Of a stretch of 10,819 nt of DNA, positions 2,343-10,519 are shown in pieces. The stretch lies in the IMG/VR virus record IMGVR_UViG_2778261301_000013, one strand, 5' to 3'. Numbering within the stretch: the stretch's first letter is position 1; every line of letters begins with the position of its first letter. The stretch is from a virus. Taxonomy: Duplodnaviria; Heunggongvirae; Uroviricota; Caudoviricetes. The position numbers and the translations under genes are program-made. The notes under the pieces were generated by a model. The model worked only from the letters and a program-made list of their open reading frames with translations. It was not told where the DNA came from and made no database searches.

Positions 2343-2945
2343 TCATGGCATGGCCATGAGCATTTTCACGTCCGCATCACCATCTGCTGACGTCTGTGGC
2401 ACGCCACCCTGTACCGCTGCCGGTGAATGGTTCGCCATGAAATGTTCAAACATGGCGGTTGTGGATGCAGAGACCGGTTCTGCCTTACCTGATCCCGCAG
2501 CCAGCACAGCCCGGGCGCTCTCCACAGTCATTCCCGGGCAGGCAGCCAGCTGTTCAGCCTGCACCTCAGCCCCTTTTGCCTCATCCAGTGCCATGATCTG
2601 ATCACGGAGTGATGGTCCGGCATCCGCCTGCGGTGAAGCAGCCAGGATCGGGCGGGCTTTTTCCACCGTCATCTCCGGCATCGCCGCCAGTGTTGCCGCC
2701 AGTTGTTCACGACCGTTCGCTTCTTCACACGCCATAATGCGATCGGCTTCACTCTGCGTGGATGCCACCGGCTGCTGCGGTGCCGCCGCGGCCAGAATCG
2801 CCCGGGCCTGTTCAACGCTCATGCCCTGTTGTCCTGCCAGCATCGTGGCAAGCTGTTCACGTCCTTTCGCTTCCTGGCATGTCAGGATCCCCATCACTCG
2901 CTGGTTCTCCTGCGCGGCGGCTTCCGTTGCAGTTAATTGCGGCAT
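2343..2945 (-). CDS. Nu3: Nu3-like scaffolding protein from an in-frame internal start within C (200 aa)
   Basis: In-frame ATG at 2945..2943 (codon 302 of C, MPQLTATEAAAQ...) is preceded by a strong AGGAGG 4 nt upstream (minus-strand GTCAGAGGAGGCACT-ATG). In lambda, Nu3 is made from an internal in-frame start in C at the corresponding place (lambda ...GGRMTKETQ; here ...GGTMPQLTA). Inference from sequence plus lambda precedent. Confidence 0.6.
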   Translation of the reverse strand: MPQLTATEAAAQENQRVMGILTCQEAKGREQLATMLAGQQGMSVEQARAILAAAAPQQPVASTQSEADRIMACEEANGREQLAATLAAMPEMTVEKARPILAASPQADAGPSLRDQIMALDEAKGAEVQAEQLAACPGMTVESARAVLAAGSGKAEPVSASTTAMFEHFMANHSPAAVQGGVPQTSADGDADVKMLMAMP

Positions 2946-5430: not shown

Positions 5431-5633
5431 AACCTCACTCCCAGCGGACGACGGCGACGCCGGGTTGTCCCCAGTACCGACTCCGCATCATTGATCGCCC
5501 GGTTAAGCTCATCCAGAGAAGCCGCCGTATATTCAATTCTGCGACCATCTTTCTGGACAGACACCACCCGTTTACCGGTTAATAAATCAAGGCGCGCCTG
5601 ACGCAGCGCCTGCAGTTCAGCGACTGTAACCAT
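5427..5633 (-). CDS. W: Head-tail joining / head completion protein W-like (68 aa)
   Basis: ORF 5427..5633 with ATG at 5633 and GGAGGAG SD upstream. Translation ([40 protein letters not shown]...RRRRRP) matches lambda gpW as recalled (same length; TGKRVATVQKDGRRVEFTA). Start overlaps the end of A by 17 nt. Confidence 0.93.
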   Translation of the reverse strand: MVTVAELQALRQARLDLLTGKRVVSVQKDGRRIEYTAASLDELNRAINDAESVLGTTRRRRRPLGVRL

Positions 5634-7545
5634 TCACTCCTCCGGACAGCTTCGCTGCCAGTTCTTTAAGGGTTGGCCGGGTCGTCTCTTCTTCCCGGGA
5701 TTTTGCCAGTACAGCCAGATCAAGCTGCCAGCGTTGCACGGACACACGTAATGCCGCGTAGGCATACACCAGGCAGTCCAGCGCTTCGTTACGCCGCTTT
5801 TTGTTATCCCACAGCAGACGCATCTTTCCTTTTTCCCACTTCTCCACAAGCTCTTCCGCGACCAGTTGCTGCGCCTCTGTCTGCGAAAAAATCTCCGGAT
5901 CATCAGGAAAACGGATGGCATACGACGTGGCTTCATCCACAGGCGTGGGATCGGCTTTCATACGGGCATAGAGAATTTCTTTTGCGGTGTCCGTCCCCAC
6001 TTCACACAGATACACGCCCCGCTGATTGCGGGTTTTTGGCATGGTGATCACCGGCTTGCCATAGACAGATGCGCCTTTTATCGGCAGCACCCGGAAAACA
6101 CCATGTTTTTTTGACCTCTGATAAACGATTTCGCCATCGATCCCCCCGATGTCCCAGCAGACACGAGAAATAGTCATTTCGGTTCCGTCTGCATGGCGGT
6201 ATTTTTTGTTGATCGCCGCATCCACACGTAACAGCGTCTCTTCCTCATCGGGACGCCCCATAATGATGATTTTATCCACCAGAAAGGCTTCCTCTCCCGG
6301 AGCCCATCCCCAGACATACATCTCAAAACGGTTTCGCTGCGAGTCAATGCCCGCCGTCAGATAAACCACCCGGGCAGGCACCGCCGCCGTGTAACGCACA
6401 ACCTTATCCATCAGTACCTGGTGATCGAGTTTTTCGCCCACGGCCTCTTCCCAGGTCTCGCCCAGCGTGGTGTTCACAAAGGTTTTCAGGCCGTTGGGAT
6501 CTTTCAGTGCATCCAGCCAGTCATAGACAATCTGTACCCATGTGGTGAACGGACTGTACGCCGTCCAGATATGGAAAGTGATGGAGCGCGGCGGCGGAAT
6601 TTCATCACCCCGGGCGCTGAAAAACATCAGGCCGTCACGGGTCCACATGCCCGTGTTTTCACAGATCCACCGCCCGTTACTCTGGTCAAGCTCAGACTGA
6701 TGGATCACACAGCCATGATGCTCACAAAGGTAGAAAACACTTTCTGGCTTATTCTTCTCCCACTTAAGACCGAAAGGCGAGGCATCATCGCCAAATTTCA
6801 GATACTGCTCCTCCCCACAGTGCGGACAGGGCACATAAAAACGCATGAAGTGTGCCGACTCGTTAGCGGCTTTTTCGATCTGGCAGGAGCCTTTGATTTT
6901 AGGCGTCGAGCCGCGAATGGATTTTGGCCATACAGAGCCCTCAATACGTTTATCCCCCAGCAGGGTTGGCGAACCCTCTTTTTCAACATCCGGTTCGAAC
7001 GAGGAAAGCTCGTCATAACAGACCACATCCACGGATTTTTCACGGTAGTTTTTTGCTGCCGCACCACCCAGACACCAGAACCCCACACCGGAGGAAAAAC
7101 GCTTCAGGGTGAGCGTATTATCGCGGTGTTTTCTTCCGAACCATGGAGCCAGCTCCAGCAATGCAGGAACATCCCTTATCGTTGGCTCAACATGAGATTT
7201 CATAAAATCTTCAGCAGCTGAGTCCGTGGGCTGAAAAAGAAGGCTGTTGCGTGATTTATGCTCAATAAAATAAGCCTCCACTCCCAGCAACATCTTTGTA
7301 TAACCAACACGGGCAGATTTAATCAGGTTAACCGTGCGAATCAGATCGTTGCCCATACAGTTCATGATGCCAACCTGAAACGGCAGTGTTTCCCACCGCC
7401 CCGGGGTATAAGACGACTCTTTAGGAAGGTAATAATGTTTATTGGCCCACTGAACTGTCGTCAGTGGAACAGGAATAATGAGAGATAAAAGCCCTGTAGC
7501 TATCGCACCGGCTGCATTAGCTGCCTTCTGCGCGTCTGAAATCAT
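5617..7545 (-). CDS. A: Terminase large subunit A-like (642 aa from the ATG at 7545; six-frame ORF extends to 7587)
   Basis: ORF 5617..7587. From [21 protein letters not shown] onward it is collinear with lambda gpA as recalled, including the Walker-type region, [16 protein letters not shown] and the C-terminal nuclease-domain blocks. Start preferred at the ATG at 7545 (MISDAQ...): it gives the lambda-like N-terminal length, has a GGGTGGA SD-like motif upstream, and overlaps the Nu1 3' end by 29 nt as in lambda. The ATG at 7587 has no SD. Confidence 0.95.
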
Positions 7546-8065
7546 CGATCCACCCGCCCACGTTTTCACCGGCCTTAGCTGCAACATTGGAGGCTTTCGC
7601 GATTTCAGTTTTCACCACATCAAGGTGTGATGGTGAAATGTCCGGATATTTACGCTGTAATGTCAACGGCACACGCACAAGTATCCCCGAAATCTCCTGT
7701 GCCACACGTTGCAGAATGAAGGTAAACAGTTCAGTTTCCAGCACTACTCCGTCTTCACGGGCATTTTTCAGTTCCTGCGCATCTGCCTGCGCTTTTGTGA
7801 GCCTGTAGCGTTCATAGTCAATGGTGCCGGGTTGTAAATCTGACTCCGCTGCCGCACGCAAATCGTCCAGTTCTTTGCGGAGCTTTTCGTTTTCGATATC
7901 AGTTTCCCTCTGCGCATACCACTGAATTGCCATGGCAGTATCAAATACAGATTCAATGCCCTTACTACCTTTGGAGGCGCAAGGGAGTCCCTGAGACTGC
8001 CAGCGTTCAATCGTCCGCGGGTCCACGTTGAAAATTTCGGCAAGCCTCTTTTTATTAACCTTCAT
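7517..8065 (-). CDS. Nu1: Terminase small subunit Nu1-like (182 aa)
   Basis: ORF 7517..8065 with ATG at 8065. Translation ([28 protein letters not shown]...[47 protein letters not shown]) is collinear with lambda gpNu1 as recalled (MEVNKKQLADIFGASIRTIQNWQEQGMP...). First gene downstream of cos, as in lambda. Confidence 0.93.
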
Positions 8066-8241
8066 GAAAACAACCCATTATCAAATACAAGGCCCGACAT
8101 GAAAACGCCAGAAAAAGGCATTTTCGGACACTTTCATGTCGGACCTTTACGGATGAAATATTAAAAAAAACAAAAAGTTATATTCGAGAAGTACCGACAC
8201 GATTTTCCCTGAAAAATTTTCATAAATAGTGAAAAACCGCG
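8066..8241. promoter_or_regulatory. cosB-like terminase-binding region between cosN and Nu1, with three candidate small-subunit binding sites and an A/T-rich putative IHF bend site
   Basis: The first 35 nt on the Nu1 side of cosN (minus-strand CGCGGTTTTTCACTATTTATGAAAATTTT) match the lambda left end as recalled, then the sequence diverges. CCGACA occurs at 8094..8099 and 8194..8199 (same orientation, exactly 100 bp apart) with an inverted copy TGTCGG at 8137..8142, mirroring the lambda R1/R2(inverted)/R3 layout but with a different motif. A/T-rich segment with an A8 run at 8146..8190 lies between the distal and middle sites. Confidence 0.65.
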
Positions 8242-8253
8242 AGGTCGCCGCCC
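8242..8253. other. cosN: 12-nt cohesive-end sequence (minus-strand GGGCGGCGACCT)
   Basis: Plus-strand aggtcgccgccc at 8242..8253 is the exact reverse complement of the lambda 12-nt cohesive end GGGCGGCGACCT, flanked by lambda-like sequence on both sides (minus-strand ...GGTTACG|GGGCGGCGACCT|CGCGG...). Confidence 0.85.
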
Positions 8254-8287
8254 CGTAACCTGTCGGATCGCCGGAAAGGACCCACCA
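8254..8287. other. cosQ-like region (phage right-end sequence adjacent to cosN)
   Basis: Minus-strand GGTGGGTCCTTTCCGGCGATCCGACAGGTTACG closely matches the lambda right-end sequence as recalled (GGGTCCTTTCCGGTGATCCGACAGGTTACG), which contains cosQ. Confidence 0.7.
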
Positions 8288-8378
8288 AAAATGATAATGA
8301 TTGTCAAATACGTTTATCACACTGATATTCAGAATCACTACTGAAAGACTCCCTTTGTGGTGCGCGAGGGATGCGCAT

Positions 8379-8405
8379 AAAAAAACCACCAGCAAATGCC
8401 AGTGG
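8379..8405 (-). terminator. Intrinsic terminator candidate downstream of the 134-aa ORF
   Basis: Minus-strand RNA CCACUGGC-AUUU-GCUGGUGG (8 bp stem including two G-U pairs, 4 nt loop; plus-strand 8386..8405) followed immediately by UUUUUUU (plus-strand A7 at 8379..8385). The stem pairs better in the minus-strand transcript than in the plus-strand one. Located about 60 nt after the stop at 8466. Confidence 0.5.
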
Positions 8406-8465
8406 CTAGAGATATTCATTGCGAATAACCATCACAAAACAACTTAACTCGTGAGGGTAGAAATT

Positions 8466-8870
8466 TTACTCGAGGCCAAATTTCTTCTTTAAATAGGCCT
8501 TCGTTAACTCCAGCCCAACATCTTTGATTGTACTCAAAGGGGCATCGCTCATTGACTTTAATTTCTCAAAAACCGTAGGTTCATTTAATGCCTGGGCGAA
8601 TTCTTGTCCCTGCGCAGATAGTCGCACGTCGGTACCCATATCTAGCATATGGCCACAATGGCGCATGTAGCCCAGTTTAGTTATGTCATCCGTTATTAGA
8701 TCTTTATTACTGATATAACCTTGCTCAATAAGAAGTAGATAATGAAACATCCCTTCATTCGAGCAGATATCGTACCCCGCATTAGCTAAGTCTTTTGTAG
8801 ATATAAAGGGAGTTTTCGCTTTCAAAAATACCTCAAGCATCCCCTTCATGTATTCTAAATTTTTAACCAC
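8466..8870 (-). CDS. Hypothetical protein, 134 aa, in AT-rich accessory block; no family recognised
   Basis: ORF 8466..8870. GTG start at 8870 preceded by a near-perfect SD (minus-strand TAAGGAGGTTTTT-GTG). Translation MVKNLEYMKGMLEVFLKAKTPFISTKDLANAGYDICSNEGMFHYLLLIEQGYISNKDL... The N-terminal half has a helix-turn-helix-like / winged-helix-like pattern, a weak impression only. Own candidate promoter and terminator. Confidence 0.65.
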   Translation of the reverse strand: MVKNLEYMKGMLEVFLKAKTPFISTKDLANAGYDICSNEGMFHYLLLIEQGYISNKDLITDDITKLGYMRHCGHMLDMGTDVRLSAQGQEFAQALNEPTVFEKLKSMSDAPLSTIKDVGLELTKAYLKKKFGLE

Positions 8871-8930
8871 AAAAACCTCCTTAGGATAATTGGAGGTCTA
8901 GAATACCGTTTGCAAGCACGTTGATAAATC

Positions 8931-9743: not shown

Positions 9744-10025
9744 CTACTTCACTTTTGCTTTTGCTTTTGCTTTTGCTTTTGCTTCCGCTCGCTTACGCCG
9801 GCGCTCTTCTTTCCTCTCGGCTTTTGCCATGTCCATGAATGCCTGCATGATCGAGTTCCGCATCATGTAGCTAACAAAGTGATGATTGACACAGCCGTTG
9901 AGGCGCAGCTGCTCGCCAAACTCATCCACCGAGGCCAATGCTTCCATCATGCCCTTCTCGCCTTTCATGAACTCTGAGAAGTCGCGCCCCGCTCTGGAGG
10001 CGCATTCAATGACACGATCACTCAT
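9744..10025 (-). CDS. Hypothetical protein, 93 aa, with a strongly basic C-terminal tail ending in an (Ala-Lys)n repeat
   Basis: ORF 9744..10025. Its ATG at 10025 overlaps the stop of the upstream KilA-N-like ORF as ATGA (10022..10025), suggesting translational coupling. Translation MSDRVIECASRAGRDFSEFMKGEKGMMEALASVDEFGEQLRLNGCVNHHFVSYMMRNSIMQAFMDMAKAERKEERRRKRAEAKAKAKAKAKVK. No family recognised with confidence. Confidence 0.65.
   Translation of the reverse strand: MSDRVIECASRAGRDFSEFMKGEKGMMEALASVDEFGEQLRLNGCVNHHFVSYMMRNSIMQAFMDMAKAERKEERRRKRAEAKAKAKAKAKVK
9753..9782. repeat. Hexanucleotide simple sequence repeat (TTTTGC)5 on the plus strand = (GCAAAA)5 on the coding strand, encoding AKAKAKAKAK
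   Basis: Five perfect tandem hexamers visible at 9753..9782, followed by a degenerate sixth (ttccgc). Lies within the 3' end of the 93-aa ORF, in frame. Confidence 0.9.
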
Positions 10026-10519
10026 CCCGGAAGCCCGGGGATCGTAATCTGCAGCTGGTTAGCCAGGGAGTTAATCTCAGCGACCAACACTGGCTTCGTA
10101 TAGCGCCATGCTGCCAGCCCTTGTCCGCAGAAGCTCGCCATGTCTTTCTTCTGGTCAAACTCATGACATTTCATGTTGAGCTGCGCACTTAAGCTGTTGC
10201 GATGCTGAAGTTCTCCGGTGAAGTAGTCATCGAGGACTTTATAGGCCGCGTACTTGAACCCGGGGTTTAACCAAGCCGCATAATCGTAAGCAACAAACTT
10301 CCCGCCATATGTTCCACCGTGTACACCGCGCTCAGTAAAAACCACAGATTCGTGGTTTTTCTCCAGCTCGGCTAAGAACTCTTTGGTCTGCTTGTTTCGC
10401 AGGTAGTGGTAAGGCGATTCAGATTCACTTTTACCACTGGCTTTCCACATATCAGTGAGGCAGATCATGCCATCTTCACCGATACGAATTGGTTGATTGA
10501 AGAGGGTTAATGATTTCAT
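10022..10519 (-). CDS. KilA-N domain-containing protein (165 aa), putative DNA-binding
   Basis: ORF 10022..10519 with ATG at 10519. Translation MKSLTLFNQPIRIGEDGMICLTDMWKASGKSESESPYHYLRNKQTKEFLAELEKN...GVHGGTYGGKFVAYDYAAWLNPGFKYAAY shows the characteristic KilA-N/APSES-type pattern (hydrophobic run + TD..KA.GK, then TKEFL, then GT....VA.DYA.WL.P.F). Assigned from recalled family features, not a search. Confidence 0.7.
   Translation of the reverse strand: MKSLTLFNQPIRIGEDGMICLTDMWKASGKSESESPYHYLRNKQTKEFLAELEKNHESVVFTERGVHGGTYGGKFVAYDYAAWLNPGFKYAAYKVLDDYFTGELQHRNSLSAQLNMKCHEFDQKKDMASFCGQGLAAWRYTKPVLVAEINSLANQLQITIPGLPG

Follow-up and report, generated by a model that had tools for sequence, protein, structure and literature searches.

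We analysed a stretch of viral DNA of 10,819 nucleotides (IMG/VR record IMGVR_UViG_2778261301_000013), called the window below, and focused on positions 8066..8287. The window is inverted relative to the phage convention, which puts the head genes on the minus strand. Between 8287 and 8066 this strand carries, in this order, cosQ, cosN, I2, R3, I1, R2 (inverted) and R1, followed by gene 1. The features are listed below with the phage records that locate them.

8273..8284: 'R4' box annotated in M81255.1 (bp 136-147), which contains cosQ.
8277..8283, minus strand: cosQ heptamer GGGTCCT, the packaging-termination signal, read from the sequence and lying within the M81255.1 'R4' box.
8242..8253, minus strand: cosN GGGCGGCGACCT, the nicking subsite, whose staggered nicks leave a 12-nt cohesive end and give the virion DNA ends (OL657228.1 bp 1-12).
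8204..8236, minus strand: I2, about bp 18-50 of the mature left end (extent from PMC4856287), an A-tract stretch that separates cosN from cosB.
8189..8204, minus strand: cosB R3 box AATCGTGTCGGTACTT, the critical site for TerS (gp1) (OL657228.1 bp 50-65; M81255.1 bp 216-231).
8168..8182, minus strand: cosB I1, IHF binding and bending site in the A/T-rich tract (M81255.1 bp 238-252; OL657228.1 bp 74-86, which is 8180..8168).
8132..8147, plus strand: cosB R2 box TTTCATGTCGGACCTT, inverted, containing TGTCGG at 8137..8142 (OL657228.1 bp 107-122).
8088..8104, minus strand: cosB R1 box TTTCATGTCGGGCCTT(G), containing CCGACA at 8094..8099 (OL657228.1 bp 150-166; M81255.1 bp 316-331).
8068..8082, minus strand: I0, putative IHF site that overlaps the RBS of gene 1 (M81255.1 bp 338-352).
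8073..8076, minus strand: gene 1 RBS (phage 21 bp 178-181; M81255.1 bp 344-347).
8065, minus strand: gene 1 start (ATG; phage 21 bp 189).
7517..8065, minus strand: gene 1, small terminase subunit TerS (gp1, 182 aa), assigned by identity to phage 21 gp1 and by Pfam Phage_Nu1.
5617..7545, minus strand: gene 2, large terminase subunit TerL (642 aa, gpA-type), which nicks cosN and powers DNA translocation (OL657228.1 bp 709-2637).

The original prediction had drawn attention to two CCGACA hexamers, at 8094..8099 and 8194..8199 and therefore 100 bp apart, and to an inverted TGTCGG at 8137..8142. These coordinates proved exact. Searching the whole window, we found no enrichment of the bare hexamer (5 copies against 5.37 expected). 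The copies are strongly clustered, with four of the five falling within 173 bp, and the Poisson probability of at least three copies in the 222-bp interval is about 2e-4. Moreover, the real repeat unit measures 16 bp rather than 6 bp. The R1 box and the inverted R2 box agree at 15 of 16 positions, and the R3 box is a 12/16 variant of the same pattern. Allowing up to three mismatches, we observed three matches to the 16-mer R box in the window where 0.23 were expected, and none of 200 shuffles reached three. R1 and R2 are the exact-pattern matches. The third match, at 2427..2442, carries three mismatches and lies within the protease/scaffold gene, far from gene 1; we judged it a chance occurrence. 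The signal above chance thus comes from the clustering and the 16-bp box, not from the frequency of the hexamer.

The nicking and termination elements were also as predicted. The reverse complement of GGGCGGCGACCT was found at 8242..8253, confirming a cosN identical to that of λ, and the λ-like cosQ could be read on the minus strand at 8277..8283, with a cosQ-cosN spacer of 23 bp. On the Nu1 side, the first 35 nt were further said to match λ, which is nearly right: 33 of the 35 agree, with mismatches at bp 18 and 24. The A/T-rich tract noticed between the distal and middle repeats corresponds to the R3-R2 interval (8148..8188), which is 78% A+T compared with 47.7% for the whole window and contains the annotated I1. 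Here the plus-strand sequence AAACAAAAAGTTA at 8168..8180 is a predicted IHF site with one mismatch to the consensus WATCAANNNNTTR. The same holds for I0, where AAACAACCCATTA at 8068..8080 on the plus strand also departs from the consensus at one position.

Performing megablast searches, we found that three phage 21 records, M81255.1 (head gene operon), X02501.1 (left end, genes 1 and 2) and OL657228.1 (complete genome), are 99.2-99.7% identical to the window across cos. Between the cosN nick and the end of gene 1, window 7517..8253 on the minus strand differs from OL657228.1 bp 1-737 by only two mismatches. One of them, at 8156, falls in the I1-R2 spacer and the other, at 7804, is synonymous. 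The similarity continues from cosN into the head genes, where 8.25 kb of the window is about 99.5% identical to phage 21, and also to the isolated phages PhiR57_1, ev017, 1W and 4C10. We transferred the GenBank sub-site annotation of phage 21 to the window (window position = 8254 - OL657228 position), and the CCGACA and TGTCGG hexamers are therefore the cores of R1, R2 and R3. All three R boxes (core ATGTCGG) have exactly the sequence and position of their annotated counterparts in phage 21, and the annotation of OL657228.1 likewise notes that R2 is in the opposite orientation to R3 and R1. The R1/R2/R3-like geometry with a motif different from that of λ, as originally proposed, thus corresponds to R boxes annotated in both M81255.1 and OL657228.1. 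The I2 segment is identical to phage 21 as well, and the I2 IHF site of M81255.1 corresponds to window 8210..8224. Taken together, 8066..8287 is almost certainly an intact cos with the packaging specificity of bacteriophage 21, located in a lambdoid prophage of an E. coli chromosome, a prophage whose packaging and head module is about 99.5% identical to phage 21; no feature of the sequence speaks against this. Alignment with the λ and phage 21 cos regions had been suggested as a check, and it places the window in the phage 21 type, although phage 21 had not been recognised beforehand.

The proteins support this assignment. The gp1 of the window is identical to phage 21 gp1 at 182 of 182 residues, shares 53% identity with λ Nu1 and matches Pfam Phage_Nu1 with E = 1.9e-81. 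Its residues 1-54 are identical to chain 7LWR_A of the solved structure PDB 7LWR, a match established by sequence identity. The DNA-binding domain of λ Nu1 (1J9I) is also a clear match to gp1. TerL carries the Pfam domains GpA_ATPase and GpA_nuclease. The recognition peptide spans residues 16-25 of gp1 and, as predicted, is unlike its λ counterpart, IRTIQNWQEQ.

The difference from λ has a known genetic basis. Work from the Feiss laboratory mapped the determinants of λ/21 specificity to bp 56 and 59 of R3 and to residues 20 and 24 of TerS (PMC4669245), and Glu24 of λ clashes with the G·C pair at bp 56 of phage 21 R3 (PMC4669245). The R3 box of the window contains CCGACA at 8194..8199, and bp 56 and 59 are window positions 8198 and 8195. 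Both are G in the window, compared with T and C in λ, and they are the sole window-λ differences within bp 53-60. At TerS residues 20 and 24 the window encodes E and S, where λ has Q and E. All four specificity determinants lie in the hexamer and the decapeptide that had been flagged from the sequence. λ and 21 discriminate between each other's DNA more than 1000-fold, even though their cosQ and cosN are described as identical (PMC4669245). Helper packaging yielded 1.24 prophages per cell for the cognate 21 pair; with heterologous pairs the yield was about 1e-4 to 8e-4 (PMC4669245, Table 6). From the sequence identity and these values, we infer that the site would be packaged by 21-specific, and not by λ-specific, terminase.

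The proposal of a distinct packaging specificity with a co-varying protein and site therefore stands with respect to λ (>1000-fold, PMC4669245), but the specificity is not new: it is exactly that of phage 21. A motif and a recognition peptide that differ from those of λ could in principle have indicated a packaging specificity distinct from both phages. We give that idea virtually no chance, because the R boxes, I1 and the entire gp1 are identical to phage 21, and the lone cosB difference, at 8156, sits in a spacer that is variable among the relatives too. A new specificity beyond λ and 21 is thus ruled out by the identity to phage 21.

We also aligned the window, phage 21 and λ with eight diverged relatives (phage IdasGreatGrand, PhiR5_1, an O157:H7 prophage and five other E. 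coli prophages). Variable columns were counted against the window in seven 21-type sequences, namely phage 21 and six of the eight relatives, down to about 82% identity. The binding sites varied little, with 19% variable columns in R3, 15% in I1 and 12% in each of R2 and R1. In comparison, the spacers had drifted. The values were 32% for the cosN-R3 stretch (I2 segment), 38% for the R3-I1 gap, 43% for the I1-R2 spacer, 59% for the R2-R1 spacer and 61% for the R1-ATG stretch, so that four of the five spacers reached 38-61% while the R boxes and I1 stayed at 12-19%. The TerS helix of the window was kept in all seven 21-type sequences. The alignment thus provides a clean natural footprint, in agreement with the genetic data in the literature. 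It had been stated beforehand that motifs unconserved in the closest relatives would speak against the claim; the motifs are conserved, and so the claim is not refuted.

The more distant types among the relatives show a different picture. In PhiR5_1 the TerS helix reads IRTIDRWQTQ and the boxes are ATGTCAGTTCTT, ATGTCGTTTCTT and ATGTCGTAACTG; boxes such as ATGTCGTTTCTT are intermediate between λ and 21. The prophage of E. coli N51 has a different TerS helix and partly altered R boxes. Protein and site change together in both, and they may represent a further packaging specificity, uncharacterised to our knowledge. Separately, two 21-type E. coli prophages, ECL27977 and STEC719, retain both the R boxes and the helix of gp1 and have changes in the cohesive end and in the cosQ-cosN spacer. 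Changes at bp 7-12 are common (PMC4669245). The cosN region of STEC719 is altered more extensively and may be degenerate.

As an alternative, the repeats could be operator or promoter elements of gene 1, and a weak σ70-like match (9/12) at 8105..8077 overlaps R1. We rejected this explanation, which we regard as extremely improbable, because promoter-like matches in the region are at the background level (4 observed against 2.7 ± 1.4 expected from shuffles). Furthermore, the repeats coincide with annotated and genetically analysed gp1 binding sites. The head genes of λ-like phages are expressed from a late promoter upstream of cos. Two terminator-like hits in the region, at 8255..8240 and 8112..8093, overlap cosN and R1; we discarded them as by-products of the cosN symmetry and of the R1 flank. 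A 90-aa ORF on the minus strand (8147..8419) spans cosN and cosB, is called 'hypothetical protein' in several phage records and in part matches phrog_11159. It is most likely an annotation artefact, since virion DNA would split the ORF in two.

A fourth TGTCGG, which the original prediction overlooked, is present at 8261..8266 between cosQ and cosN. It has the orientation of R2 and matches 10 of the 16 positions of the R-box consensus. The hexamer arises from a λ-type G at 8264 and is common to λ, while phage 21 has TGTTGG. We consider it coincidental. Binding of a 21-type gp1 at this place, to the cosQ side of the nick, with an effect on cleavage or termination in this recombinant cos, seems very improbable.

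The window also bears on the state of the DNA. A 1-kb stretch across cos gave full-length matches of 99.8-99.9% in E. coli chromosomes, for example NZ_CP076272.1 and those of the O104:H4 outbreak lineage. In the matching chromosomes the lysis genes lie upstream of cos and the head genes downstream. As the match runs end to end across cos, the uncut cos reflects the prophage state, in line with the earlier suggestion of a prophage or circular form.

Whether the prophage itself still uses this cos is a separate matter. The site could be a relic in a defective prophage, intact yet unused by its own phage, and serve at most as a target of a superinfecting 21-type terminase or as a substrate for recombination. 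Only 10.8 kb is visible and the rest of the prophage, beyond the window, could be defective; many lambdoid prophages of E. coli are cryptic. The cosB/gene 1 element is very common in E. coli: of 5426 complete E. coli genomes, 1247 carry relatives of cosB and the gene 1 start, often more than one copy each, and in 471 records the identity is 99% or higher. Packaging initiation at prophage cos sites has also been discussed (PMC4669245). On the other hand, all packaging and head ORFs in the window are full length, we saw no frameshift in either gp1 or TerL, and the window shares about 99.5% identity with the viable phage 21 and with isolated phages such as PhiR57_1, 1W and ev017. We therefore hold a relic to be rather unlikely, and this reading concerns the viability of the prophage, not the identity of the site. 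As a cos of the phage 21 type, the interval 8066..8287 can now be labelled base by base (cosQ, cosN, I2, R3, I1, R2, R1, I0), and the prophage is predicted to produce, or be mobilised by, 21-specific rather than λ-specific terminase.

The region upstream of cosQ contains accessory genes. A 134-aa ORF at 8466..8870 on the minus strand has no Pfam hit and matches phrog_585, of unknown function, with E = 3e-31. Directly downstream of this ORF and about 100 bp upstream of cosQ, we observed a terminator-like hairpin (8384..8407, minus strand) with 10 pairs and a loop of 4, followed by TTTTTTTAT, with the T-run extending to about 8374. The hairpin resembles the terminator of a cargo gene ('moron') that would have been inserted between the lysis genes and cos, and late phage transcription would need to read through it. 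The combination of the 134-aa gene and a 21-type cos is scarce: window 7900..8900 was at least 80% covered in only 25 of the 5426 E. coli genomes, the O104:H4 lineage included. Farther upstream lie a 165-aa protein with KilA-N and ORF11CD3 domains (10022..10519, minus strand) and then a 93-aa phrog_875 protein (9744..10025, minus strand). These two genes sit between the lysis genes and cos, as accessory cargo that is missing from the right end of phage 21.

The R3-I1-R2-R1 architecture and a docking model based on an IHF bend have been described (PMC9026076, PMC4856287). This mechanism is established for λ and 21, and by sequence identity to phage 21 we infer that the cos of the present prophage would function in the same manner. 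Winged helix-turn-helix dimers of gp1 (TerS) would bind the R boxes (core CATGTCGGnCCT), and a bend induced at I1 by IHF, a DNA-bending protein of the host, would allow R3 and R2 to face a single TerS dimer. TerS bound at cosB would then anchor TerL (gp2) for accurate staggered nicking of cosN, the nicks being 12 bp apart. Packaging would start toward gene 1 (rightward), and termination at the next cos would need cosQ and cosN.

Among known systems, the closest to the window is phage 21, of which cosN, I2, R3, I1, R2, R1, I0, the RBS and gp1 are all identical here, the spacer base 8156 being the sole exception. The cosQ side differs. Between cosQ and cosN, the window departs from phage 21 at 8271 and 8264, the latter being the λ base, and the similarity to M81255 ends at 8283, immediately after cosQ. 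The right-arm genes farther upstream differ, so that this arm is not the phage 21 one. Mosaicism of this kind is usual among lambdoid phages, here at a junction where the λ and 21 sequences can functionally replace each other. The packaging specificity of phage 21 cos/gp1 is long characterised, and the locus is another natural copy of it. Since the repeats are the known small-terminase binding sites of phage 21, the finding that began with them is correct but ordinary.

The cos of λ has the same cosN 12-mer and cosQ heptamer (the 7-bp cosQ is highly conserved among λ-like phages, PMC4669245) and the same R3-I1-R2(inverted)-R1 architecture and spacing, and its gpNu1 is a homologous TerS with a DNA-binding domain that is, in both, a Nu1-type winged helix-turn-helix. 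The R boxes set the two apart. The λ R-box is CGTTTCCTTTCT, and λ-consensus boxes were not found in the window, where the TGTCGG core stands against the aligned λ boxes AGGCGTTTCCGTTCTT, TGTCGTTTCCTTTCTT and TGTCGTTTCCTTTCTCT. N15 is another member of the λ-like cohesive-end family, with an R3 that is similarly placed (PMC4669245). Its simple cosB consists of one critical R3 and an accessory rR2 in the TerS gene, without I1, R2 and R1, whereas the window, with three R boxes and I1, has a complex tripartite cosB. The locus falls on the 21 side of the λ/21 pair, the classic model for the selection of viral DNA by terminase.
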